This document shows, piece by piece, positions 12,914-24,581 of a stretch of DNA of 32,000 nucleotides. The stretch covers positions 240,001 through 272,000 of the forward strand of contig JALHOH010000002.1 in NCBI GenBank assembly GCA_022843095.1, given 5' to 3'. The DNA is from Candidatus Saccharimonadota bacterium (GTDB taxonomy: Bacteria; Patescibacteriota; Patescibacteriia; 2-12-FULL-60-25). Numbering within the stretch: position 1 is the stretch's first letter; every line of letters starts with the position of its first letter. The position numbers and the translations under genes were made by a program. The notes beneath the pieces are model-generated. The model saw only the letters and a list, made by a program, of their open reading frames with translations. It made no database searches and was not told the origin of the DNA.

Positions 12914-13442
12914 GACAGGCGGGGAGCTCGCGGAACCCCGCGCTTCCGTTCAAGTGCGCGCCGTTTTTGATGACGAGAAGCGGAGCCTGCAACACCTCCG
13001 CCAACGCCTGGCCATCCGCAAGCGGCACGATGGCATCATTGTCCCCGTGAATCACCACGATGTCGCGGACGTACTTTAGAATCCGTGCGCCATCAACGCG
13101 TTTTGGTAAAAATGCATCGATCGCCTTTCTGCCCGTGCGCGCCAGCGGGCCAGACACCAGCACCAATCCACGCACATTTTTTGGCTTCGCTTTTTCGAGA
13201 TACCGCAAAATCGCCGGAACACCCAAGCTGTGCCCGACCAAATAGACCGGCTCCTTTTTTGGCAGACGCGTGACGTGACGCGCGATCTCCTGCACCCATT
13301 CGCGAACCCGAGGCCGTGACGGGGATGGCATCGCAAGCGCACACGCATACACCTCCATCTTCGCAAGCTCAGCCATGAGCCACGGCCGCCACCCGCCGTT
13401 CGGACTCCCTTCGAACCCATGGATGAGGAAGATGTGGGGCAT
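12870..13442 (-). CDS. Alpha/beta serine hydrolase, YdeN/RBBP9-like
   Basis: IFLIHGFEGSPNGGWRPWL.., nucleophile elbow VGHSLGVPAILRYLE, and a later VVIHGDNDAIVP. Confidence 0.8.
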   Translation of the reverse strand: MPHIFLIHGFEGSPNGGWRPWLMAELAKMEVYACALAMPSPSRPRVREWVQEIARHVTRLPKKEPVYLVGHSLGVPAILRYLEKAKPKNVRGLVLVSGPLARTGRKAIDAFLPKRVDGARILKYVRDIVVIHGDNDAIVPLADGQALAEVLQAPLLVIKNGAHLNGSAGFRELPACLTALQGMLAKNAAS

Positions 13443-13485
13443 AGGCTACAAGACAGCGGTATGTACAAAATTTAAATATAATCAA

Positions 13486-14313
13486 TTACTCTAATTCCTT
13501 CAGCGTCTTCCCGTTCTGCGTCTTCCACTCGTTCAAACCATTCATAGAGCTGCCACGTACAATCGTGGCAGCTGCACTCGGTGACGAAAATAGATAATCC
13601 TGAGTAAAAACATAGTGACGATCGTCGGAAGAGGAAAGAATTCCGCCCTCAATCATCTGCGTGCGCCGTTTGAAGTAATTATGACCTTCGAAGGCTGGTG
13701 CATGTTTTTTTCTAGCTAAGCTCCCCTTGAGCACCAACAGACCACTCTCGCCGTACACACCCTGTGCATTCGCATCAGGGCCAATACAAGTCACTGAAAC
13801 GCCCGACTGCTTCACCTCGGCTTCAACTTCATTGCTAGCACGAAGCACTGAGTAGCCTAAACTCAAAAGAACATCAGACGCGCGATCAACAAACTCCTCC
13901 ATCACGTCCTGATCCTCTGACGAGATCGTTGGACTCTTGGGCGACGTACCGTTTTCTAAAGTCACCAGTCCCTCTGACGCGAGACGCTTTGTGAAAACAT
14001 GTTCCAAATATCTCACCTCGGTCTTTGTAAGTTTGGGTGAAGTAAATGCAATCAATTCGATCCAATTCGGTTTCGTGATCGCATGTTGCGCAAGTCTCTG
14101 TCCAAGTGCATCCGTTTCACCTACGTAGATATTGTTTTCATCACCCAGCAAAAAATACACGGCTGGCTTTTCCGCCTCAGGAAGCTCCTTCATTTTTTTT
14201 AGCGCAGCTCTTGGTGCAATGATCGCCTTTCCGTTCCAATTCGAAAGCTCGGCAATTTTAACGCCATACGGAGTGCCGTCGAGTAAGACGACCTTGAGGG
14301 ACTTGGATCGCAT
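13486..14313 (-). CDS. GIY-YIG nuclease-like protein with a C-terminal DUF4357 domain
   Basis: VVLLDGTPYGVKIAELSNWNGKAIIAPR.., PAVYFLLGDENNIYVGETDALGQRLAQH (GIY-YIG-like) and a C-terminal YLFSSPSAAATIVRGSSMNGLNEWKTQNGKTLKELE (DUF4357 pattern). Trimmed from 14430 to ATG 14313 (MRSKSLKV). Confidence 0.8.
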   Translation of the reverse strand: MRSKSLKVVLLDGTPYGVKIAELSNWNGKAIIAPRAALKKMKELPEAEKPAVYFLLGDENNIYVGETDALGQRLAQHAITKPNWIELIAFTSPKLTKTEVRYLEHVFTKRLASEGLVTLENGTSPKSPTISSEDQDVMEEFVDRASDVLLSLGYSVLRASNEVEAEVKQSGVSVTCIGPDANAQGVYGESGLLVLKGSLARKKHAPAFEGHNYFKRRTQMIEGGILSSSDDRHYVFTQDYLFSSPSAAATIVRGSSMNGLNEWKTQNGKTLKELE

Positions 14314-14657
14314 ATTTTGGATACAACATAGCCGGCTCTGAGCATCTTGAATAGGGTTGAAATACGGTAGAAACCTATTATCAATGCAAAAATATAAAAC
14401 GATTACCGCTTCATTTAAGGGCTCAACCAAGCAAAATAGTCAGTCAACTTCTAAAGACGATCCTGGGCTTGGGTTTTCGTACGCAGTTTCAGTTATTCAA
14501 GATTACGTGAATGAAGCACCAATAATGGCATTCATGCACGCAAATTTTAGGTTTTTAAGTTAATAACCTACGATTTGAGACTTGGCGTTATATCGGGATA
14601 ACGATTGGAATCACCACAAGGTGCTCAATGTATCTAAATCTCTCAAATCTCCTTGGA

Positions 14658-17600
14658 TTATTCCGCTGCAACCTCAATAGTAAAGGCATGTATTGCATCT
14701 TTATTCAGGATTTGAAGTTTTAGTTTTTGAAAAACTTTAACCACTACTTGTTGGCGTAGATATCCCTCGGGATCAGGATGCTGCTTAAGCCACGCAGGAT
14801 TCTCAAGAAGAATTTTATTGCGTAGCTCGTCATCCTGATTTAGGTCTGCAACGTTGAGATAAAAGAATCCATGTCTAAATTTCTCATCTTCAGGCTTATT
14901 AATCGGTGAGTATTGAATCAATTTGAAGAACGATTTTAGATCGACCACGACGATCTTGTTTTGCAGTTCATCTTTTTGAGCAAACAAATCTATCACGGGT
15001 ATATCTACCCCATTTACCCGTAGCAAACCTCGGTACTCTTTACATCCACTAAAACTGCTCTTCGCGGCACCTTCTCGAAAATGCGGGGTGAAGTTAGGAT
15101 GATTGAAGATCGCATTTTCAAGTCTGTAATCAAGCGTCTCTAAAATTACTGGATTCGAAATTTTTTGCGTTTGTAGCACCGCTTCAAGCTGACTGACAAA
15201 ATTTTCTTGAGTGACCTGAGTACAGGGCGATGCTTGATTGAGCATTCCCTCAAAAATAAACTGATCTTCAGAATTCGCCATTCCCTCTCCATAGGTATCG
15301 CCCCATCCGGCAAAATGAACGTACCAATTTTTTATGAAGCCGGCCTTTTGATCAAGCTGATTATAGCCCCAAGAATCGATATGTTCATCCGGCAATGCAT
15401 GGGATTTATCACTAAATAATCCCATGCTCACCAGCAGAGGACGGAGCACACCATTTTCTGAAAATGTTTTTTCAATTTTAGCCTTAAACTCTTCCAGTTT
15501 TTCCGGATCTATAGCCACCGTTTTGAGCATCTCTTGTTCGTCATATTCTTGCTGTTTACGGGCCCCCTGAAAAAGCTCTTTTAAAGCATTGACCTTAGAT
15601 ATTGCTTGCTGATCTAGAATCGGCCATTGGGTCGGATCTGACGCAATGGCATCAAGAATTGTAATAAGTCCACGATCATTGCCTCCCCGCTCTGCTAAGA
15701 ATGCGAATTCACGAGAAGTTGGGAGAGCTATGGCCTTAACCTGTTGATCATTCATGGATTTCAGTAGTAATAGAGCGACGGCACAGTAGAGCCTATCAAG
15801 CTTCCCAAGAAAGTATATTTCGTGAACGCGCCCATCCGGAATCGATTCCCAATGATCCCAATTCCAGATACGTTCAGTCTCGAATGATCGGGTAGATTGA
15901 TAAAGGAGGGTAAGCTTATTTATATCTTTTGGAAGATAGCTAATGCAGGCTAAGACGAAATTCTTGATAACCGTATCGTCAGGGTTCTTTTTACAGTCAT
16001 CAAAGATGAATGCCGACAAACCAAAGGTAACCTGATTGCGCCTAACCTCGACATCGCGCTCAATTTTTTCTTTGGCTTCTTGTAGCGCAAGTCTTTTTTC
16101 TATTTCAGCTCTTTGGGCTGGATCCGTGGCTTCTTGAAAGCTATATCTCAGGTTCTCCGCACGCGGGTGCTCGTGCGATGGATGAAAGTTATGAAAGACT
16201 TCGAAAAACTGAAGAAGGAATGTCTTAAAATCCTCCTCTCTACGCGCATCGAAAGCCGCTTTTAGAATACTTTGGAAAGTCACAAAGATCGGCACAAAAA
16301 AATCATTGAATTCCAGAAGCGTCTTCGGATCACCGGCTTTCTTGTCTATTTGATATCCAAGTCTATAATCAGCTGTTTCCTTTAAATAGCGCCAGGTCCT
16401 CTCAACGACTGCATCAGTAATTTTCGAGTCTCTTTCTTCAAGAACGGTGAGATACAGTAGGTATGGAAATACAATGAATTCTTGGAACAGGTACTGGTCC
16501 CCAGACTCTATAGCCCTTCCAGCGATTGCAATCGGTAAATAGGCTAGATCATAAAATGTTTTGCGGTCATTGCTTTGGATCGCTTTCGTGCAGATATCGC
16601 GTACGCTCTCAAAGAGCCAACGTATTTCATCCCAACCGCCAAAAAGAGTAGAACGCTCTTTAACGGCTTGGTCGTATGTATAGCCTCCACCATATTTTTT
16701 CATGGCAGCCAGAAAAGATTCTGCTAGATCGATGTAGATTTTTTTGAGCTCCTCTATGCGATCTGCTCTTTTTTCCCCAATAGCAATAATCAACTGCCCG
16801 TTTAGGCTTGCTAACTCGAGGCGCATCTCATCGGAAAAGCTATCTTGGGACTTTATGCTAAAAACAGAACGCGCCAGGTGCTCTGCGTCTCGTAAGGCCG
16901 AATCGCTCTTGATAGCATCTTTATCAAAGCTGAATAGAAGATTGCTATCCTCCGAAATTCTATCTTGAAACTTTTTATGAACGTATAGCTTCGCCTGTTT
17001 ATAGCTGTCCCTCCGTTTTCCAACGGTAGAAGAATCACCCGCGTAGGTCAGCTCTGTTTTATTGGGATAAAAACTGTAACCATTCTTATTGGCTGCCGTT
17101 TCTAAAAATTTGGCGAGTTCGTATAAACGATCCATCTTAATATCAACAATGTAACCTCTTTTTTCAGTACGCACCTGAAAGCGCTCTCCGGATTCTTCTT
17201 GATCGAGTGAGAACGGGTAAAAATCCAATCCAGCTTTATTTTCTTCAAGACTTTTAAGGAAGATGCTATTACCAATACGTTCTTCTGCCGCCTTGTTTAT
17301 ACTCCTGTCGATCCTATCCTTTAAAAGCGCCGTTCTCTTGGCAGAAAACTTCGCCTTATCCAACAACACAACTAATAGACGCCAGAGCGATGCGACCGTT
17401 AAGATCGCAACAATAATAGTTGGAACAATCGCCCAGACATTTACATCACCCCAAATATAAATAAAGAAGCTGGCGATCTCTGTTACGGTGAGCGGGAAAA
17501 GGAAACTTTCACGCAATAATACACGAGCACGATCTTTTGCTTCATCGTCTCTAACGCTTTCTGCGACAAAAATGAGCAATGCAAAAATGACTGCTCCAAC

Positions 17601-17999
17601 GCCAGCATGAATGGCTATAAGGTTTTGAAAATGTCCACTTTTTTCAAAGTCTAATGGATGCCAATGCGGCATATGTGCCAACCAATAAAAAACCGCTGTA
17701 CCTCCAAGGATAATCATCAGAACCAACCAGGAAGGATAGTAGAGTTGCTCGCCCAGATTCCTAAAGCGTTCAAACTTTATGCCACCCCACGTTTTGGAGA
17801 TATCCTTCCTTATTTTCGTCGTCAAAAGTTCAGATTTCTGTTTTTGTAACTTGACCCACATCCCTAGGATCAATCCGGCCAATATCAAACATCCTCCAAC
17901 TATCCAGGTAACTTTAAGGAAAATAAAAAACAGCAACCAGTTGTAGACACCAAAAAGGATAGTTAGAAAATTTGTTACATTCCAGCAAACGTCACACAT
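14658..17999 (-). CDS. Orphan 1113-aa polytopic membrane protein: about six N-terminal TM helices plus a ~890-aa soluble region of unknown function
   Basis: Uninterrupted 3.3 kb ORF whose ATG 17999 lies 6 nt after the HTH stop. TM segments include FLTILFGVYNWLLFFIFL, WIVGGCLILAGLILGMWV, WLVLMIILGGTAVFYWLA, LIAIHAGVGAVIFALLIFVA, FPLTVTEIASFFIYIWG and WAIVPTIIVAILTVASLWRLLVVLL. I saw no P-loop (no GK[ST]) and no HExxH. No family recognised. Confidence 0.85.
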   Translation of the reverse strand: MCDVCWNVTNFLTILFGVYNWLLFFIFLKVTWIVGGCLILAGLILGMWVKLQKQKSELLTTKIRKDISKTWGGIKFERFRNLGEQLYYPSWLVLMIILGGTAVFYWLAHMPHWHPLDFEKSGHFQNLIAIHAGVGAVIFALLIFVAESVRDDEAKDRARVLLRESFLFPLTVTEIASFFIYIWGDVNVWAIVPTIIVAILTVASLWRLLVVLLDKAKFSAKRTALLKDRIDRSINKAAEERIGNSIFLKSLEENKAGLDFYPFSLDQEESGERFQVRTEKRGYIVDIKMDRLYELAKFLETAANKNGYSFYPNKTELTYAGDSSTVGKRRDSYKQAKLYVHKKFQDRISEDSNLLFSFDKDAIKSDSALRDAEHLARSVFSIKSQDSFSDEMRLELASLNGQLIIAIGEKRADRIEELKKIYIDLAESFLAAMKKYGGGYTYDQAVKERSTLFGGWDEIRWLFESVRDICTKAIQSNDRKTFYDLAYLPIAIAGRAIESGDQYLFQEFIVFPYLLYLTVLEERDSKITDAVVERTWRYLKETADYRLGYQIDKKAGDPKTLLEFNDFFVPIFVTFQSILKAAFDARREEDFKTFLLQFFEVFHNFHPSHEHPRAENLRYSFQEATDPAQRAEIEKRLALQEAKEKIERDVEVRRNQVTFGLSAFIFDDCKKNPDDTVIKNFVLACISYLPKDINKLTLLYQSTRSFETERIWNWDHWESIPDGRVHEIYFLGKLDRLYCAVALLLLKSMNDQQVKAIALPTSREFAFLAERGGNDRGLITILDAIASDPTQWPILDQQAISKVNALKELFQGARKQQEYDEQEMLKTVAIDPEKLEEFKAKIEKTFSENGVLRPLLVSMGLFSDKSHALPDEHIDSWGYNQLDQKAGFIKNWYVHFAGWGDTYGEGMANSEDQFIFEGMLNQASPCTQVTQENFVSQLEAVLQTQKISNPVILETLDYRLENAIFNHPNFTPHFREGAAKSSFSGCKEYRGLLRVNGVDIPVIDLFAQKDELQNKIVVVDLKSFFKLIQYSPINKPEDEKFRHGFFYLNVADLNQDDELRNKILLENPAWLKQHPDPEGYLRQQVVVKVFQKLKLQILNKDAIHAFTIEVAAE

Positions 18000-18005
18000 A
18001 TGCGA

Positions 18006-18194
18006 CTACATTTCATGCTCCTTCAGGAACTTTGTGAAAGCCTCTTTCGTTACTCGAAACTCTTTCCCAAACTTATAGGCGTCCAAGCGGCCAGCTTTAA
18101 TATAGCGATAGATCGTCATTTCACTTACGCGTAGCTTTTCTGCAATCTCCGAGACAAGATAAAAGTCCGTCTTGGACGGGATTTCGACGGTCAT
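18006..18194 (-). CDS. Excisionase-family / MerR-like helix-turn-helix DNA-binding protein (62 aa)
   Basis: MTVEIPSKTDFYLVSEIAEKLRVSEMTIYRYIKAGRLDAYKFGKEFRVTKEAFTKFLKEHEM matches the HTH_17/excisionase pattern (..T..E.A..L.VS..T.YR.I..G.L.A.K.G...RI....). Trimmed to ATG 18194, 4 nt after the mod stop. Confidence 0.75.
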   Translation of the reverse strand: MTVEIPSKTDFYLVSEIAEKLRVSEMTIYRYIKAGRLDAYKFGKEFRVTKEAFTKFLKEHEM

Positions 18195-18198
18195 ATCA

Positions 18199-20172
18199 TT
18201 AAGCCACCCACAAATTATCGCCGAATATACGCTTGAGGTTCCACTTGCGCGTGGAATTAACGGATCGCTCAAGACAAATGAATCGCCGCTCTTTGAATGT
18301 TTCGAGCGCTTTTATCGTCTCGTCGTGAATACTTTCATCCAGACAAACTAGCGCTGTTTTTTCACCATCTGAAACATCCAGGACTTTATTCTTCTTGAAT
18401 TCCTTCATCGGCTTGGCAGTGAAATTCAAATCAAATCCATCCTTCAAAGCAATCTCAACCAGCAGTTCATCTGGTTTGAAGTCGAAAAGATGCGCTTGCT
18501 TGGATTTTTCCAAGTACGCTTCCCAAGCTTTTAACTTTTCTTCCTCCGTCATTTCCGAATCAACCTCAAACATGTTTTGAGGGAATAAAGATTTTGCAAG
18601 ACGAAGTGTTTTAAATCCGGTATCCACTTCGGGTTTTTCTTCTTTAATCTTGGCACCGGCTCGCTTTACGCGTTCGATGGTGATTTGAGAAATTGTCTTA
18701 TAGCCCGCTTTGAACGCTTCGCTTTTCTCATCTGTGGCTTCAGGGAGTTGAACTAGAATAAATTTACGGTTGCCATTGTCTTCTTTGTTCAGTTCCATAA
18801 TTGAATGCCCAATGGTTCCTGATCCCGCAAAAAAATCTAAAATCAAATCATCACTTTTAGTACAAAACTCCACAACATCCTTTAATACTAACTCATCTTT
18901 TGGATGCTCAAAATAATCGCCGCCCATAAGCTCGCGAAGACGTTTGGTGGCTGCGCGACCATCCTGATAAAAGACACTGTAAGGAACCTGCGTTTCTCTA
19001 TCCTTCAAGTAAGTTTTGATACAGGGCACCGATGTCTCATCCGGTCCGAAATGCACTCTATTATCAACGATTGCTTCGAGCATTTTGTCGGGTGAACCAA
19101 ACATCCAGCCACGGGAAGGCACCTTGCATGGTTTTTTTGTAACCGGGTGGAGTACTTCATATGTTGGACCTCCACCGCCGGGCCATGAAATATCTGCCGC
19201 AAAGTAGATGCCTTTTTCATCCACATGGCTATAGTGGCTATGGTTTTTTGCAGGATCTGTATTGTCTAAACCCGCATACCAATTAGATAAACCTAGCTCA
19301 ATTGATTTAAAGTCGTTCTTGAATTTCTTTTTTAATTTCTCATATGCCGAATAGATCGCTTCCAGCCCCTTCTTTCGATGTCTCCATGTAATATCATTTT
19401 CAATGAGTTCAATCGAATTCTTTACATAGCAGACTAGATATTCATGCGATATAGAAATGAATCGGGAGTCGTTTTTTCTTCCTCCGCTCCATACTAATTG
19501 CGCAATAAGGTTCTCTTCTCCAAAAATTTCGTCAGCCAGCTTCCGCAAATTGTGAACTTCGTGGTCATCGATGCTCACAAAAATAACACCATCGTCTCGC
19601 AGTAAATTTCTCGCCAATAACAACCGGCTTTGCATCATCGAAAGCCAATTCGAATGATAGCGGCCGCTTGATTCGGTATTCGTATCAACGCGCACCCCCT
19701 CCTGCATCACACCGCCTTTTTCCCAATACGCCTGTTTTGATTCTGAATAATCATCCGGATAGACAAAATCATGACCTGTGTTGTACGGCGGATCGATGTA
19801 AATCATTTTCACCTTTTTGAAGTACGAGGATTGGAGCAGCTTCAGCACTTCCAAATTCTCGCCTTCAATGATGAGATTCTGCGTCGTATCAAAATCTACG
19901 CTCCGTTCTTTGTCCGGAACGAGGCGCGCTTTACTTGGCGTGAACGCAAAGCGCTTGGAAGCTGTTTTGCCAGTCCAAGGAAACGCATAACGCTCCACCT
20001 CTGGTTTCGAGTAGTCATCGACGAGAGCCTGTAGCTCTTTAGCATTCAATGTATTTCCTTCGCCGAAAAGCGCAGGATAAATCTCGCGCATTTTCTCGAT
20101 CATCTCTTTGCGAACATCCTTGCTCGTAGCAGGGATCTGGTTCAGAGAAATTCCTTCGTTCTTTTTAGTCAT
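18199..20172 (-). CDS. mod: Type III restriction-modification Mod subunit (N6-adenine DNA methyltransferase, beta class)
   Basis: NLIIEGENLEVLKLL, MIYIDPPYNTG (motif IV DPPY), a central variable region, then DFFAGSGTIGHS (FxGxG SAM motif). The motif order IV..I is typical of Type III Mod. Confidence 0.9.
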   Translation of the reverse strand: MTKKNEGISLNQIPATSKDVRKEMIEKMREIYPALFGEGNTLNAKELQALVDDYSKPEVERYAFPWTGKTASKRFAFTPSKARLVPDKERSVDFDTTQNLIIEGENLEVLKLLQSSYFKKVKMIYIDPPYNTGHDFVYPDDYSESKQAYWEKGGVMQEGVRVDTNTESSGRYHSNWLSMMQSRLLLARNLLRDDGVIFVSIDDHEVHNLRKLADEIFGEENLIAQLVWSGGRKNDSRFISISHEYLVCYVKNSIELIENDITWRHRKKGLEAIYSAYEKLKKKFKNDFKSIELGLSNWYAGLDNTDPAKNHSHYSHVDEKGIYFAADISWPGGGGPTYEVLHPVTKKPCKVPSRGWMFGSPDKMLEAIVDNRVHFGPDETSVPCIKTYLKDRETQVPYSVFYQDGRAATKRLRELMGGDYFEHPKDELVLKDVVEFCTKSDDLILDFFAGSGTIGHSIMELNKEDNGNRKFILVQLPEATDEKSEAFKAGYKTISQITIERVKRAGAKIKEEKPEVDTGFKTLRLAKSLFPQNMFEVDSEMTEEEKLKAWEAYLEKSKQAHLFDFKPDELLVEIALKDGFDLNFTAKPMKEFKKNKVLDVSDGEKTALVCLDESIHDETIKALETFKERRFICLERSVNSTRKWNLKRIFGDNLWVA

Positions 20173-20180
20173 ATGTATAG

Positions 20181-21035
20181 TTATTTTGACGACTTCTTCT
20201 TTCCAGAAATCCGCTTTGGCTCCGACTTGCGCGGCAGGACGCCGATCTTGCGACGTACTAAATCTTTAATGTGTTCCTCGGCCGGCAATTCTTCCGGCAT
20301 CGTGCCGCCGATTTGTTCGATGGTTTTACGGACTTTGCTGCCAACGTCGTAATGCGTAGCACTTGCCGCATCTTCGCCCGTCACGCCATTCATTTTGAGC
20401 TTGGCATCCGTTTGCGTGATACGGAACAAATTCGCGGCCAGCTCCGTGGAACCTGCACGATCCAAAATGTCGTCGTGGCCGATGCCTTTCTTTTGTTTGA
20501 TATCTTCGGCGGTCAATCCATACAAACCGAGATAACCAGCGTTGTTGAACTTTCCAAAATTATCAACGCCCGCCTTCTTTGCCGTATCGAATAGTTGCTT
20601 GTTATGCGAAATGACCTGCTGGCGTGTAAACAGGCGCTTCCCATCGTCGTCCAATGTCTCGTAAAGCTCCTGTTTGCGCGTCTGAACGGCAAAATAGGCT
20701 TGCGCGAAGGCAATCTCCGGCTTCCGAGGATCGCCATTCTGGGCGATCAAATAACAAGCAAAGCGGGAAAGATGGTAATTAACGACTTTTCTTGCCGTTT
20801 TTGAGCCTATTTCGACCAATTTCGGGGCGTCCCGAAAATGGTCCTGAACCGCCTGCTTCGTGCTTACACAGGTGGCTTGAGCGCGCTTAACGGCATTATG
20901 GAAGTCTTCCCAACGGGAATACCCAAGAAGAGGCATTAACTCACGCGCCTCCCAATACTCGTAGCCGTGTTCATCCATCTTTTTGATGAATTCGAAGTCC
21001 TTATGCAGGGATGTGGGGATGATGGAGGTATCCAT
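20181..21035 (-). CDS. dinD: DNA-damage-inducible protein D (DinD) homologue
   Basis: Full-length resemblance to my recollection of E. coli DinD: YWEARELMPLLGYS, SRFACYLIAQNGDPRKPEIAFAQAYFAVQTRKQEL, RLF.R....HNKQL, DRAGSTELAANLFRITQTDAKLK, THYDVGSKVRKTIEQIGGTMPEELP. Confidence 0.85.
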   Translation of the reverse strand: MDTSIIPTSLHKDFEFIKKMDEHGYEYWEARELMPLLGYSRWEDFHNAVKRAQATCVSTKQAVQDHFRDAPKLVEIGSKTARKVVNYHLSRFACYLIAQNGDPRKPEIAFAQAYFAVQTRKQELYETLDDDGKRLFTRQQVISHNKQLFDTAKKAGVDNFGKFNNAGYLGLYGLTAEDIKQKKGIGHDDILDRAGSTELAANLFRITQTDAKLKMNGVTGEDAASATHYDVGSKVRKTIEQIGGTMPEELPAEEHIKDLVRRKIGVLPRKSEPKRISGKKKSSK

Positions 21036-21043
21036 AAATGAGA

Positions 21044-23662
21044 TTAAAAGATTTTCGTTTCCGTCGACTCGTTCGCCTTTTCCTTGAACGTCTCAAACGA
21101 ATCGATCGGGGCTAAATATTCTTTCAAACCGACCGCTTCGAAGTGCTTAACGGCGCAATCAATTTTCATGCGTTCGTCCGGCGCCAAATCTTCTTTCCGT
21201 TTCGTTCCTTTGGTTTCCACGACAAATTGATACGTGACTTCTGCACCATCTCCATCTAATGAACGCTTTTCAACCACAATCGCCCAATCCGGTTGATATT
21301 CACCGATAGGCGTTGGAACGGAATACCATTTCGGAAGCTTGAAAAAGAGTCGGATGCGATGATCGTTATCCAACTCCGCACCAAATCGACGCTCTACGTC
21401 ACTATCAATTTTCTCCGCGTCATATAGTCCTTTGTTCGGAGTCGCGACAATATCGCCGAGCGTATCATCAAGCTCTTTGAATAAACCGGGCGCAAAGCTT
21501 TCACCGGTCTGTTCATAACGAACAACCGTAACAAGCTCGCGATCAATAATACGCTTCATTCGTTCGGTGGCTTCCGTCATAAAGACAATCGGATTCTTGG
21601 TGACGTGTTGCGGATTTCCAGCCTTAGATAAAATTTGGCGAACCGTATCAAAAGCGAGCCCGGTTTGATCGGAAATCTCATTCACCGGATCAATTGATGC
21701 CTTAACACCATTCGCCGAACGCGGATCCGCCGCTCCCACATATTCATTCCAAAGTTTTGGCGCATATTCACGACCAAGGGTTGTGATGCGATTCAATTCA
21801 ACGTTGATTGACGGGGCTGGTACACGAATCGTTCCGACTTCTTCCGCACAACGCTTGATAATAGATTCTTCATTAAAGACGGCTGACCATGAAGTTTTGA
21901 GAGCAATGCGCTTCCACAATTCAGAGAAGTCTTTGCTTTCAAATTTCGCCTTGTTCAAACGCAACTTCTTTGATTGAGCTTTCGCGTCACGGACTTTCGG
22001 CGCTTGCGCCTCGGTTCCGTATTCCTCGGACAACTCTTGCTGATACTGTTCCGCGAATGCGTGGTAACTCTGGTTTGCGATAACGGTGAGCAAGTTTACC
22101 TCTTGGCCTTCGTGTACATCAGCCGCATCTCGAAAGCGATCTCCATTTCGATCCACGCAGATACGAAGACCGCGCCCAAGCTCTTGCCGTTTTTTTACGG
22201 AACTTTTTGTTTCGTTTAACGTACAAATATTGAAAATATTCGGATTGTCCCAACCTACGCCAAGCGCGGAGTGTGAGAAGATGAATTCTAAGGGATTTTC
22301 CAAATCCAACAGCCGTTCTTTGTCTTTCAAGATGAGCTGATACGCCTCGCTATTTTTACTCATGGAAGCCTCGTTATCCGTCCACTCACCCTTACCTGTC
22401 TGAGCAAAATATCCGTTATGGATGGCTTCGATATTTTTTGGTTCATCCTTGTATCGTTTTTGATATTCCTCACGATACATTTCAATGAACAACCGACGAA
22501 TTTTTCCATCTTCGTTTACATAATTTGAGACGCGGTCAATAAAAAACAACGAAAGAACTTTGATGCCTAGTGGCACGCGAATATCCTTTTTCTCAAAGTG
22601 CTTTTTGATGGTGTGGCGAATCTGTTCACGGAATAAGTCCTCATTATCGCGGCTGCCAGCGCCCTTAACGAGCACGCTTCCGTTGGTGAATTTAATTTTA
22701 TCTTGCCCATCCTCCATGTCGCGCCAAATACGTTCGATAATCAGACCTCGATACGCTGGATTGCCAGTTTCAACGGATAAATCATCGCATACCTCGACTT
22801 TCCCAGGCTTCAATGGACTTCCACATTTCAATCGATGCGTCATGAAAGTGCCGTCTGCATTTTTCTTATTCACGATCAGCCAGGTGTACGGCTGTCCATT
22901 CCCTCCCGGGAATATGATATCGTCCACCACGATATCATCGGTCGTATTATCTACGGTCGTGGATAATACCTCGACGCGCTTCACTAACGACTTCTCATAC
23001 GCGTCAAACGGCGTGAGTCGGTAAACCACATTCTTTGGCTCCGTATGCGTAGCAGAGTAACGAAGCTTGAATAGCGGATTAAGCGAGCTTAACCCCTGCT
23101 CTGATTTTTTCGTTCCCATGCCGACCTGCGGCTCATCCATCACAATAATCGGGAACGTCTGTTTGATGAGATCAATCATCCGGACTCCATGCGTGCTATC
23201 GCGCTCCTGGGAAATAATTCTATCTTCCGCATTGAATGATTGAATATTCATTACCATGATCTGGAGCGTGTTCGCTTCGCAAAACGCTTTTACCTGCGCC
23301 AACTTCTTACTGTCGTACCCAAAATATTCAAATGGGATCGAATACATTTCCTTGAAGTGCGTCCGTGTCATCTCGAGTGTTTTGAGCACACCTTCACGAA
23401 CCGGAATGCTTGGGACAACGATAATGAACTTCGAAAGACCGTAAGCGCGATGCAAATCAAAAATCGTTCGAAGGTATACGTAGGTTTTTCCCGTTCCCGT
23501 TTCCATCTCTATGGAAAAATCCATCTCCTCTGTTTTGTGTGCATCTTTGTCCGAGATTTTGTGTTCAGCGAGGATCACGTCTCGGTTCTGTAAGATTCGT
23601 TCAGGTGAGAGTGAGAGAACATTGGCATGGACTTCGGCGAACACGTTGTCACGCGCCTTCAA
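21044..23662 (-). CDS. res: Type III restriction endonuclease Res subunit, main frame (helicase plus PD-(D/E)xK nuclease). The N-terminal 26 codons are displaced into another frame.
   Basis: Helicase motifs IEMETGTGKT (I), IVMDEPQ (II), RYSATH (III) and QELGRGLRI (VI), plus a C-terminal nuclease motif YQPDWAIVVEK...FVVETKG. The track ORF starts at a TTG (23662), not at the true N-terminus. Confidence 0.9.
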   Translation of the reverse strand: MKARDNVFAEVHANVLSLSPERILQNRDVILAEHKISDKDAHKTEEMDFSIEMETGTGKTYVYLRTIFDLHRAYGLSKFIIVVPSIPVREGVLKTLEMTRTHFKEMYSIPFEYFGYDSKKLAQVKAFCEANTLQIMVMNIQSFNAEDRIISQERDSTHGVRMIDLIKQTFPIIVMDEPQVGMGTKKSEQGLSSLNPLFKLRYSATHTEPKNVVYRLTPFDAYEKSLVKRVEVLSTTVDNTTDDIVVDDIIFPGGNGQPYTWLIVNKKNADGTFMTHRLKCGSPLKPGKVEVCDDLSVETGNPAYRGLIIERIWRDMEDGQDKIKFTNGSVLVKGAGSRDNEDLFREQIRHTIKKHFEKKDIRVPLGIKVLSLFFIDRVSNYVNEDGKIRRLFIEMYREEYQKRYKDEPKNIEAIHNGYFAQTGKGEWTDNEASMSKNSEAYQLILKDKERLLDLENPLEFIFSHSALGVGWDNPNIFNICTLNETKSSVKKRQELGRGLRICVDRNGDRFRDAADVHEGQEVNLLTVIANQSYHAFAEQYQQELSEEYGTEAQAPKVRDAKAQSKKLRLNKAKFESKDFSELWKRIALKTSWSAVFNEESIIKRCAEEVGTIRVPAPSINVELNRITTLGREYAPKLWNEYVGAADPRSANGVKASIDPVNEISDQTGLAFDTVRQILSKAGNPQHVTKNPIVFMTEATERMKRIIDRELVTVVRYEQTGESFAPGLFKELDDTLGDIVATPNKGLYDAEKIDSDVERRFGAELDNDHRIRLFFKLPKWYSVPTPIGEYQPDWAIVVEKRSLDGDGAEVTYQFVVETKGTKRKEDLAPDERMKIDCAVKHFEAVGLKEYLAPIDSFETFKEKANESTETKIF

Positions 23663-23729
23663 ATAATCGAACGATGGAATTCACCGCATCAAGCTGGTAT
23701 CCGAGATTGGCTTCAAAATGGAGCTTCAT
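23649..23729 (-). other. res: 26-codon ORF encoding the displaced canonical N-terminus of Res (frameshifted gene fragment)
   Basis: My translation gives ATG 23729 .. MKLHFEANLGYQLDAVNSIVRLFEGA, then TGA at 23651-23649. The M-K-L-x-F-x...Q.DA....V.LFEG pattern is the usual start of Type III Res proteins. The main frame is the +1 frame relative to it. Confidence 0.7.
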
Positions 23730-23743
23730 AAACGTTTGACAGT

Positions 23744-23772
23744 AGTTTACGTTGGCAACATCTAAGGGTCAA
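23744..23772 (-). promoter_or_regulatory. Candidate sigma70-type promoter of the res-dinD-mod-HTH-membrane protein operon
   Basis: On the minus strand: TTGACC (23772-23767), a 17-nt spacer, then TAAACT (23749-23744). The -10 ends ~14 nt upstream of ATG 23729. Sequence pattern only. Confidence 0.35.
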
Positions 23773-23954
23773 TCGTTTTCGTCAAGCATCAGCGCACGAT
23801 TTTTGAGTTGTTTTATGTTCGCCAGACATCCTTGTGGATATCTCCCGCTTCTCTAGGAGAGCTTTGGATGTCGTGCGTGACATGGCGAACGAAACGCATA
23901 CGTACACCAAACTGCAGACGATGTTTGACGTAGTCTCACAGCCGCCGTTGAGTG

Positions 23955-24460
23955 GGGCGTGCTCAATACCATTCCGCGCTTGAATAGCAGGACGTGGATT
24001 TTCGCCAGCGTACAGTCACAGTCCACCGCGCAAATGTCGGCGGACACATTGGTACTCCGAAGAATAGACGTATTCGATAAGTGCCCCTCACGAATGAAGT
24101 CATCAATAAGCTCAAATCTCTGAACAACGAGTCCAAGCTTATCTTCCACCGCGCTGGCAAACGACTCATTTACTGGCCGTCGCTCTGTTTCCTTCAGCGA
24201 ACCTGTAAACGCGCTAATATCAGTCCAATCGATGGCACACGCTTCGTCATACGTTCACATCGCATCTCGCTCCAGAATTGCTACGCGATACGATCAACTC
24301 CTTGGACGCGTCACAAACCTTGAAAGTTTGGGCAATAGGTGGTCAACGCGACGTTACCGTCACAACCAATCAACCTCGCGCCTCCTTCGCAGCCCGGGTT
24401 CCTCACGAGTGTCGCCGGCACTCGTTCGGATCCCCTTCGAATCCATTACCACTCGCATAA
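23955..24460 (+). pseudogene. Tyrosine recombinase (phage-type integrase) remnant: catalytic domain only, with in-frame stops and several frameshifts
   Basis: Pieces are spread over three + frames: ..LNTIPR.. / ..ALE*QDVDFRQRTVTVHRANVGGHIGTPKNRRIR*VPLTNEVINKLKSL..KLIFHRAGKRL....CKRANI / WHTLRHTFTSHLA / ..DQLLGRV....RRYRH. These correspond to integrase boxes (R, W.D.DF, TPK, H-x-L-R-H-T-F, LLGH, Y). The N-terminal domain is missing because the res promoter starts ~180 nt upstream. Confidence 0.75.
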
Positions 24461-24493
24461 AATAAGACCCGCATTATAGCGGGTCTTATTTTA
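24461..24493. terminator. Bidirectional Rho-independent terminator between the integrase remnant and the tRNA
   Basis: AATAAGACCCGC (24461-24472) / GCGGGTCTTATT (24479-24490) form a perfect 12-bp stem with a 6-nt loop, and T-rich sequence flanks it on both strands. Confidence 0.75.
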
Positions 24494-24581
24494 TGGCGGA
24501 GAGGGAGGGATTCGAACCCTCGATACCTTGCGGTATGCTTGCTTTCCAAGCAAGTGCACTAGACCACTATGCGACCTCTCC
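24494..24581 (-). tRNA. tRNA-Ser (anticodon GGA), 88 nt with long variable arm and encoded CCA
   Basis: The reverse complement GGAGAGGTCGCATAGTGGTCTAGTGCACTTGCTTGGAAAGCAAGCATACCGCAAGGTATCGAGGGTTCGAATCCCTCCCTCTCCGCCA folds by hand. It gives a 7-bp acceptor, a D arm, anticodon stem CTTGC/GCAAG with loop TTGGAAA, a 16-nt variable arm, T arm GAGGG-TTCGAAT-CCCTC, a G discriminator and CCA. Confidence 0.93.

Follow-up and report, generated by a model that had tools for sequence, protein, structure and literature searches.

The 32,000-nt stretch of DNA analyzed here (the window; Candidatus Saccharimonadota bacterium, contig JALHOH010000002.1, positions 240,001 to 272,000) contains on its minus strand, at positions 14658-17999, an open reading frame (ORF) of 1113 codons that starts with ATG and encodes a membrane protein of 1113 aa, hereafter the target. 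We show that this gene belongs to a large family that has no name, is horizontally mobile and shares a fixed architecture of four parts, that it strongly prefers the 3' end of restriction-modification (R-M) operons of any type, and that it is exchanged independently of these operons, as a cassette. The C-terminal domain of the protein is predicted from structural models to adopt the HK97 fold, which to our knowledge has so far been known only from virus capsids and encapsulin shells. Based on its genomic associations, we infer that the target is a defense gene, directed against phages or, more broadly, against mobile genetic elements (MGEs), that forms a second layer behind restriction, which fits the documented habit of R-M loci of carrying abortive-infection accessory genes such as prrC. 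Our preferred reading, which we hold tentatively and at somewhat less than an even chance, is that of a stand-alone R-M-linked defense module composed of a putative capsid-fold cytoplasmic sensor or oligomerizer and a conserved membrane effector. An earlier note on this DNA had proposed the gene as a defense component of a Type III R-M operon; the in silico results favor the defense part of that proposal, but the gene is not specific for Type III systems and behaves as a portable single-gene cassette.

The full-length AlphaFold2 model, which was built from a 41-sequence alignment (mean pLDDT 85.1, pTM 0.69), gives, together with hydropathy, column identity and a separate model of the C-terminal domain, the following layout of the protein.

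17361-17999, minus strand: transmembrane (TM) domain, aa 1-213, with six TM helices (hydropathy and AlphaFold2 helices)
17475-17624, minus strand: most conserved segment, aa 126-175, comprising TM4, a cytoplasmic amphipathic helix and TM5 (column identity)
16839-17360, minus strand: stalk helix, aa 215-252, and small alpha/beta domain, aa 258-385 (AlphaFold2 secondary structure)
15426-16838, minus strand: all-alpha solenoid, ARM/HEAT-like, aa 388-858 (AlphaFold2)
14661-15425, minus strand: C-terminal alpha/beta domain, aa 859-1113, core 860-1108 (domain model and Foldseek)

The C-terminal domain was also modeled alone, as aa 825-1113 (window 14661-15527), from a 28-sequence alignment (pLDDT 92.5, pTM 0.88). 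A Foldseek search with this domain model against the PDB returned 125 chains at E<=1e-3, with E-values down to 2e-6, and the top 50 matches were all HK97-fold capsid proteins or encapsulins. Among the top matches are the capsids of HRP29, NF5, HK97, N4, Kp7 and DT57C and those hijacked by SaPI1 and PLE, as well as the encapsulins of T. maritima, M. tuberculosis, M. xanthus and H. ochraceum and the P. furiosus particle 2e0z. The TM-scores of the matches range from 0.40 to 0.62 at about 10% sequence identity, the best ones (TMt up to 0.62) being those of compact encapsulins. When the full-length model was used, the best Foldseek matches were tailed-phage major capsid proteins, both in the PDB and in BFVD, and the weaker ones (beta-catenin/armadillo and designed helical repeat proteins) were contributed by the solenoid. 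The predicted elements begin with N-terminal helices and a hairpin at the position of the E-loop; a spine-like helix of 25 residues then leads into a mixed alpha/beta core, and a strand of 14 residues lies near the C-terminus. This order fits the HK97 fold, whose A-domain and P-domain with a long spine helix and an E-loop hairpin are recognized by structure comparison, and in such a comparison the predicted structure matches the fold. The conserved motif of the domain, GYNQxDxKAAFIxxWHVHYxGWGxxYGxGMAxSED (aa 878-912), contains the invariant residues G878, K885, F888, W892 and G904, which cluster from the hairpin to the start of the long helix. Profile searches (Pfam for 41 members, PHROGs and PDB) gave no match to capsid or encapsulin families, such as Phage_capsid or Linocin_M18, and since sequence methods detect nothing, the assignment is purely structural and based on predictions. 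It should be noted that a single regular-expression match to a PD-(D/E)xK nuclease motif is present at aa 870-885. We take this match as chance because its 'PD' is not conserved and because the fold search gives HK97.

Hydropathy and AlphaFold2 agree on the positions of the six TM helices (aa 8-27, 30-50, 89-108, 126-148, 167-185 and 188-212), so that the count of about six N-terminal helices in a 1113-aa ORF, as given in the earlier note, was right. The remainder had been described there as soluble and mostly helical, which applies to the solenoid but not to the two alpha/beta domains (aa 258-385 and 860-1108), and the predicted HK97-fold domain, which is the most informative feature of the protein, came to light only through structure modeling and Foldseek. 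Some homologues lack TM1 and TM2, leaving a conserved four-helix core. In the 41 sequences, the loops 51-88, 149-166 and 213-252 contain on average 9.3, 4.8 and 8.8 lysine or arginine (K/R) residues, versus 1.5 and 0 in the loops 109-125 and 186-187. According to the positive-inside rule, these counts place the former loops inside and the latter outside, which argues for an N-in/C-in topology with everything after aa 213 located in the cytoplasm. The segment from TM4 to TM5 (aa 126-175; motif NLIAIHAGxGAxIFALLIFVAESxRDDExKDRARVLLRESFLFPL) has a mean column identity of 0.80-0.86 versus 0.40 over the whole protein. This degree of conservation exceeds what a mere anchor would need and argues for a function beyond anchoring.

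As the earlier note had reported for two of them (Walker A and HExxH, besides any obvious PLD signature), the target contains no Walker A, HExxH, HKD, DEAD or HNH motif. That note had also likened the segment following the TM block to DUF2254 (PF10011), and a match to this profile can indeed be found, but only below threshold: in one of 13 members it scores 14.9 bits (E=0.012) against a gathering threshold of 28.8. The match runs from TM6 through the stalk into the first part of the alpha/beta domain (aa 196-297 versus positions 126-218 of the 368 in the profile), and full-length Pfam scans of the target and its relatives gave no DUF2254 match. On the basis of a sub-threshold score we did not accept DUF2254 membership, and the two may be remotely related. 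They resemble each other in layout, as in both a small cytoplasmic domain comes after a TM block; however, DUF2254 proteins are only ~400 aa long and have neither a solenoid nor an HK97 domain. No functional literature on DUF2254 was found.

The second line of evidence comes from the genomic context of the relatives, which was analyzed in a sample of 29 distinct loci with readable upstream sequence (those other than the window are given here by L numbers). At 16 of the 29, a raw count that leaves the genome background aside, the homologue directly follows R-M genes that are encoded on its own strand, and the junctions typically range from an 8-nt overlap to a 25-nt gap. The R-M partners, followed by the surroundings of some other homologues, are as follows.

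Type III: the window, L045, L002, L022, L031, L026 (with a Fic gene in between) and probably L006 (Res-type helicase, contig end)
Type I: L001 (hsdM-hsdR, 8-nt overlap) and L019 (hsdRMS, 3-nt gap)
Type II: L018 (methyltransferase (MTase) and DpnII-family), L023, L033 (REase_II 5e-84 and MTase)
Type II: L016 (TaqI-family and MTase, via a 117-aa ORF)
MTases with no nuclease identified: L034 and L039
GmrSD-HNH, Type IV-like: L032
L003: a PLD-family protein follows the homologue
L007: homologue near a NERD protein
L008: homologue in an element that also encodes two serine recombinases and a D5-type primase
L014: homologue beside a CBASS operon
L012: homologue among ribosomal and cell-division genes

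The homologues are not housekeeping genes with conserved non-defense surroundings. The 16 of 29 overstate independence somewhat, since some of the R-M-linked loci share ancestry. In an all-against-all comparison of the neighbors within 5 kb, the recurrent ones were DNA methyltransferases (12 loci), large serine recombinases (8 loci, or 10 when the distance is extended to 10 kb) and Type III Res (four loci), and no other recurrent partner gene was detected. The lack of a conserved partner gene indicates that the target gene is a self-contained module. A conserved small upstream partner was considered and rejected, as the small helix-turn-helix (HTH) gene that precedes the target in the window recurs only in its closest relative, L045. 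No portal, terminase, protease or scaffold gene was present in any annotated neighborhood, and neither these neighborhoods nor the viral genomes searched (see below) support the view that the target is a structural gene of a phage or prophage. The context does not correspond to an encapsulin system either, which would be recognized by an adjacent cargo gene with a targeting peptide or by a fused cargo domain: the neighbors are R-M genes, recombinases and unrelated genes. Because no C-terminal motif common to the upstream proteins was found, encapsulin-like docking of R-M enzymes as cargo was also rejected. Likewise, the target is not a Type III subunit: it has no MTase, helicase or nuclease domain, and its family also follows Type I, Type II and GmrSD genes or stands alone. 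What the family does display are the features by which defense islands are operationally recognized, namely adjacency to R-M genes (16 of 29 loci) and recombinases (10 loci; both raw counts), a patchy spread and, in the window, location in a low guanine-cytosine (GC) island.

Some of the homologues have further neighbors of interest. At L003, which belongs to an Elusimicrobia genome, a PLDc_2 protein of 476 aa (13441-14871) follows 45 nt after the homologue and may be a nuclease partner in that lineage. At L014, the region 14477-19381, which is within 8 kb of the homologue and adjoins a serine recombinase, encodes a ParB-MTase fusion, an S24 peptidase and a CBASS operon (patatin and SMODS cyclase). 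Genes of the Fic/DOC family are located upstream of two homologues (L026, 8453-9568; L038, 49-993); at L026 the Fic gene lies between the Type III res gene and the homologue.

Comparison of individual loci shows that the target is exchanged independently of the R-M operons. One case is provided by L002 and L022, whose DNA is ~80% identical over the 3' part of mod and the whole of res, up to the res stop codon. DNA similarity then becomes undetectable across the target, whose proteins are 40% identical, and returns at the target stop codon to continue through a downstream serine recombinase; apart from this, similarity is interrupted only in the central part of mod, which is presumably specificity-determining. 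Res proteins that are 91% identical are paired with targets that are only 40% identical. In turn, the targets of the window, which follows a Type III system, and of L001, which follows a Type I system, are 77% identical.

A second informative pair is formed by the window and L045, which has the same res-mod-HTH-target cassette without the DinD-like gene that separates res and mod in the window. Since the operon of L045 is otherwise colinear, the DinD-like gene looks like an insertion into the Type III operon. The HTH gene occupies the same position in both and is absent from the other homologous loci. Identities between the two are 95.6% for Res, 95.2% for the HTH protein and 75.3% for the target, and synonymous divergence (pS) is 0.36 for res, ~0.55 for the ends of mod, 0.86 for the HTH gene and 0.77 for the target. 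Because synonymous divergence climbs along the operon, the discordance between Res and target is best explained by mosaic recombination that joined segments of different ages. Accelerated evolution of the target protein was rejected as an explanation, given that its synonymous sites are saturated too and that the ratio of nonsynonymous to synonymous substitution rates (dN/dS) is ~0.05 where it can be measured. The latter value, obtained against the 75%-identical orthologue, and a nonsynonymous divergence (pN) of 0.11-0.15 with saturated pS against the 77%-identical one, show that all four domains of the target are under purifying selection. The HTH gene is extremely constrained (pN 0.02 with saturated pS), while aa 221-450 of Mod are hypervariable (pN 0.50 versus 0.03 and 0.09 in the flanking parts), as expected for a swap of the target-recognition domain. 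The cassette of L045 also adjoins a tRNA-Ser gene (L045 1057-1148), with anticodon GCT instead of the GGA of the window, and the finding that the cassette abuts tRNA-Ser genes with different anticodons in two genomes suggests integration at such genes.

The gene had been regarded as an orphan, which proved wrong. A word-indexed search yielded 78 homologue clusters at the 90% identity level, with identities of 27-98%; nearly all are full length (~1,000-1,190 aa) and none contains a Pfam domain. When a 41-member profile was searched against 1.84 billion representative proteins (50% identity clusters), 1,734 representative clusters were obtained at E<=1e-3 and 779 at E<=1e-30, almost all of them full length. 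The species-representative genomes that encode a member belong mostly to Patescibacteria. The other hosts include Atribacter, Scalindua, delta- and gammaproteobacteria, Bdellovibrionales and Fusobacteriales, as well as one archaeon, a Methanobacteriaceae methanogen. Besides Patescibacteria, the phyla represented include Atribacterota, Planctomycetota, Pseudomonadota, Bdellovibrionota and Fusobacteriota, and the distribution across the many bacterial phyla is patchy. No relatives of the target were found in IMG/VR (2.9 million viral contigs), INPHARED (50,697 phage genomes) or PLSDB (72,556 plasmids), and a phage or plasmid origin was rejected on these grounds. Sequence-family scans were run with the single sequence, with each member and with profiles of the whole protein and of its N- and C-terminal parts. 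The target had no match in Pfam, NCBIfam, PADLOC-DB v2.0.0, PHROGs or the PDB sequences, nor any PADLOC family match at E<=0.1, including MADS, Zorya, Kiwa and the PDC candidates; no confident match assigns the target to a known family. Full-text literature searches on the HK97 fold, membrane proteins, defense and R-M accessory genes revealed no description of the target family. A short form of 365 aa, whose similarity to the family is confined to the N-terminal part with the TM and alpha/beta regions, is encoded at L044 (6001-7098) inside a 706-kb contig and is followed by an unrelated 204-aa ORF. It represents either a copy in decay or a form that naturally consists of the N-terminal part alone.

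In the window, the target is the fifth gene of a same-strand block that is transcribed in the order res, DinD-like/Bro-N, mod, HTH_17 and target. These genes and their neighbors are the following.

21044-23662, minus strand: Type III res, 872 aa, with ResIII helicase and RE_endonuc (PADLOC REase_III 3e-194; Pfam)
20181-21035, minus strand: DinD-like/Bro-N gene, 284 aa, between res and mod (NCBIfam DNA damage-inducible protein D 9e-101; PADLOC candidate PDC-S13 7e-105)
18199-20172, minus strand: Type III mod, 657 aa (PADLOC MTase_III 1.7e-177; Pfam N6_N4_Mtase)
18006-18194, minus strand: HTH_17 gene (excisionase/MerR-like), 62 aa, between mod and target (Pfam HTH_17 2e-11; TIGR01764 4e-13)
14658-17999, minus strand: target, polytopic inner-membrane protein, 1113 aa (ORF and translation)
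13486-14430, minus strand: GIY-YIG and DUF4357 protein, 314 aa (Pfam; PHROG 12629, 7e-51)
24494-24581, minus strand: tRNA-Ser(GGA), border of the island (ARAGORN)

From 5' to 3', the genes of the block are separated by 8, 8, 4 and 6 nt, of which the 4-nt and 6-nt gaps were taken from the sequence itself: the mod stop codon TAA (18201-18199) is followed 4 nt later by the HTH ATG at 18194, and the HTH stop codon TAG (18008-18006) is followed 6 nt later by the target ATG at 17999. Since a scan of the block for promoters and terminators was uninformative, giving fewer sites than shuffled sequence, the operon is called on the intergenic gaps of 4-8 nt. The block lies in a low-GC island of ~11 kb (~13450-24450; GC 0.37-0.52 versus 0.55-0.64 in the flanks), which adjoins tRNA-Ser(GGA). 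The flank on one side contains housekeeping genes (RsmH, UvrC, UvrA, glycosyltransferases) and a VanW-like gene, and that on the other side tRNA-Ser(GGA), PyrD-like, PyrC and MgtE. Much of this had been read correctly in the earlier note, in particular the Type III R-M genes, the 4-nt and 6-nt junctions that link mod, the HTH gene and the target, and the tRNA-linked island. The target had also been called the last gene, and it does close the block formed with res, the DinD-like gene, mod and the HTH gene; however, the GIY-YIG and DUF4357 gene follows on the same strand after 227 nt, still within the low-GC island. This gene is not shared with L045, whose similarity to the window stops near window position 14469.

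Several other features of the island deserve mention. The HTH protein matches mad1 weakly (6e-9 in PADLOC; 29.9 bits versus a cut-off of 80 in NCBIfam). As only the HTH protein resembles MAD1, and the target matches no MADS model, a MADS system was rejected. The longest ORF of the HTH gene starts with TTG at 18272 and overlaps mod (18006-18272, 88 aa), but the ATG at 18194 is supported as the start because the HTH protein of L045, which is 95% identical, also has 62 aa. In the window, as in L045, res precedes mod, which is the opposite of the order in L002, L022 and L031. Res of the window is 28 aa shorter at its N-terminus than Res of L045, although DNA similarity extends upstream to ~23912. 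The true start of res may differ, or its 5' end may be damaged. The ~830 nt between res and tRNA-Ser (23663-24493) contain no intact ORF, and a perfect 14-bp inverted repeat (AAAATAAGACCCGC...GCGGGTCTTATTTT) at 24456-24495, directly beside the 3' end of the tRNA gene, looks like a terminator. The ORF fragments between res and the tRNA gene gave no Pfam match that would point to an integrase remnant, and no direct repeat of the tRNA 3' end, as expected for att repeats, was found at the far end of the island.

How does the target compare with known systems? Its predicted fold and the order of its elements are like those of HK97-fold shell proteins (HK97 gp5, HRP29, NF5, N4, 80alpha hijacked by SaPI1, and encapsulins), and the size of its C-terminal domain (~260-290 aa) is that of encapsulins. 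However, it has no detectable sequence similarity to them, the domain forms the C-terminal quarter of a membrane-anchored protein of 1,100 aa, and the gene is located neither in phage or prophage morphogenesis modules nor next to encapsulin cargo genes. As modeled, the target thus has the structural hallmarks of the HK97 fold and none of the sequence-family or context features of phage capsids and encapsulins. The only precedent that we found for an HK97 fold fused to TM helices is that of the Mesorhizobium Family 3 encapsulins, which have an MFS-like C-terminal extension with 4-5 TM helices (Andreas & Giessen 2021, PMC8346489). In these proteins the HK97 domain is N-terminal and the TM part C-terminal, the reverse of the target, there is no solenoid, and the genes are located in natural-product biosynthetic clusters instead of behind R-M genes.

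With respect to genetic organization, the closest parallels are the accessory abortive-infection genes, such as PrrC, that are carried by R-M operons (reviewed in PMC12707154). PrrC (at the EcoprrI Type IC locus), RloC and PARIS follow the same logic, in that an extra gene in or after an R-M operon is believed to come into play once restriction has failed (PMC12707154). Unlike these systems, of which PrrC and RloC are soluble anticodon nucleases with ABC-ATPase domains and PARIS consists of an ATPase and a TOPRIM nuclease, the target is membrane-embedded, has no NTPase or nuclease motif and no PADLOC match, and is not tied to one type of R-M system. For a host capsid-type protein that interferes with a viral capsid, a conceptual analogy can be found in eukaryotes, where Fv1 and enJS56A1 are domesticated Gag, i.e., capsid-derived restriction factors; fold, lineage and viruses all differ from those of the target. 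Among described systems, we know of no counterpart of the target as a candidate defense module.

In the mechanism that we propose for the R-M-linked defense module, the membrane-tethered HK97-fold domain would engage components of phage capsid assembly late in an infection that has escaped restriction. The major capsid protein, capsomers, scaffold and portal are candidate ligands, and the domain might either sense these components or, as a poison subunit, trap them at the membrane. The solenoid would relay the signal to the conserved TM domain, which would then collapse membrane integrity or potential, and the infection would be aborted. A further possibility, which we consider rather unlikely, is that the target is a domesticated capsid-fold protein acting as a membrane-tethered antiviral restriction factor that co-assembles with or recognizes tailed-phage capsid proteins; as a result, head assembly would be poisoned, or an abortive response that disrupts the membrane would be set off. 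HK97-fold proteins, however, are defined by their self-assembly into capsomers, and the domain could therefore serve a defense or conflict effector only as a self-assembly scaffold, assembling on the cytoplasmic side of the membrane into a capsomer-like ring of five or six subunits, or into part of a cage, and thereby arranging the TM domains into a pore or channel. The trigger would in that case be something other than capsid proteins, e.g., DNA damage, restriction products or inhibition of the R-M system. Besides capsomer self-assembly, the best TM-scores, which are those of compact encapsulins, and the high conservation of the TM domain agree with such a scaffold, which shares the R-M linkage with the preferred reading and has parallels in the R-M guardians PrrC and PARIS (PMC12707154); the association with four mechanistically unrelated R-M classes, the stand-alone copies and the lack of a common C-terminal docking motif on the upstream proteins argue against a protein that senses one R-M enzyme. 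We regard the scaffold as possible, if doubtful. Capsid engagement is preferred because it would explain why the capsid fold in particular has been kept and why the gene would be useful beside any early-acting nuclease system, but the evidence does not discriminate between the two, and the scaffold is given almost equal weight.

Several observations weigh against the reading that we prefer. The HK97 assignment comes from predicted structures, at TM-scores of ~0.5 and ~10% identity and without support at the sequence level; HK97 folds also simply self-assemble; and the search for toxic or enzymatic motifs in the TM domain found none. In addition, 13 of the 29 loci have no adjacent R-M genes and some are located amid housekeeping genes (L012), the R-M-linked loci are partly of shared ancestry (window/L045; L002/L022/L031), most hosts are uncultured, and the family is absent from the sequenced plasmids and phages searched. 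Part of the same evidence would fit other roles. The large serine recombinases within 10 kb at 10 loci, the position of L008 between two recombinases and a D5-type primase, the cassette that adjoins tRNA-Ser genes in the window and in L045, and the mosaic, cassette-like evolution would all suit an entry-exclusion, superinfection-exclusion or maintenance protein of serine-recombinase integrative elements that travels with R-M addiction modules. Yet a protein whose large domains lie in the cytoplasm is poorly placed to block entry at the cell surface, and several copies (L012, L003) have no recombinase or MGE gene nearby, so that we consider such cargo unlikely; it is, moreover, only partly a distinct explanation, as exclusion and defense overlap in practice. 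The homologues that are located among ribosomal and cell-division genes (L012) and near cell-wall genes (L003), together with the weak PF10011 match, could point to an ordinary DUF2254-like membrane protein with a physiological role in transport or in the envelope, whose adjacency to R-M genes would merely reflect shared variable regions. This is improbable in view of the near-zero-gap, same-strand coupling to unrelated types of R-M genes at 16 of 29 loci, which is far above chance (taking as base rate an estimate of ~1% of genes), the patchy, horizontally transferred distribution, the replacement of cassettes inside conserved elements, and a PF10011 match that is below threshold and limited to one of 13 members. 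Least probable of all is an accessory R-M subunit that regulates restriction, or that anchors or concentrates the restriction complex at the site of phage DNA entry in the membrane. The apparent translational coupling behind R-M genes (8-nt overlap to 25-nt gap) would be consistent with such a role, and encapsulin-type HK97 folds bind cargo peptides; however, the Type I, II, III and GmrSD-type partners share no common subunit, their proteins carry no common C-terminal tag, many copies have no R-M genes nearby, and the pairing of nearly identical Res proteins with very different targets is hard to square with a co-evolving interface. The four unrelated R-M classes, the stand-alone copies and the 91%/40% discordance between Res and target disfavor a PrrC-style sensor of a single enzyme as much as they disfavor an R-M subunit.

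If the view of an R-M-linked defense module is right, the target would represent a new and widespread single-gene class of defense with ~1,700 representative clusters, commonest in Patescibacteria and other uncultured lineages, for which Pfam, NCBIfam, PHROGs and PADLOC-DB v2.0.0 contain no model. Its position behind every restriction type would make it a general partner of the commonest form of bacterial immunity. In the less likely case of a restriction factor with a domesticated capsid fold, it would be the prokaryotic equivalent of Fv1 and other Gag-derived factors, and HK97-fold proteins would comprise a third functional class besides virus capsids and encapsulins. A membrane-anchored, non-viral HK97 fold would bear on the debate over the exchange of proteins between capsids and cells, and with this family the idea that hosts turn capsid-like proteins against viruses could be put to the test. 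Should the defense role fail, the family would still represent a large, strongly conserved and wholly unannotated membrane-protein architecture.

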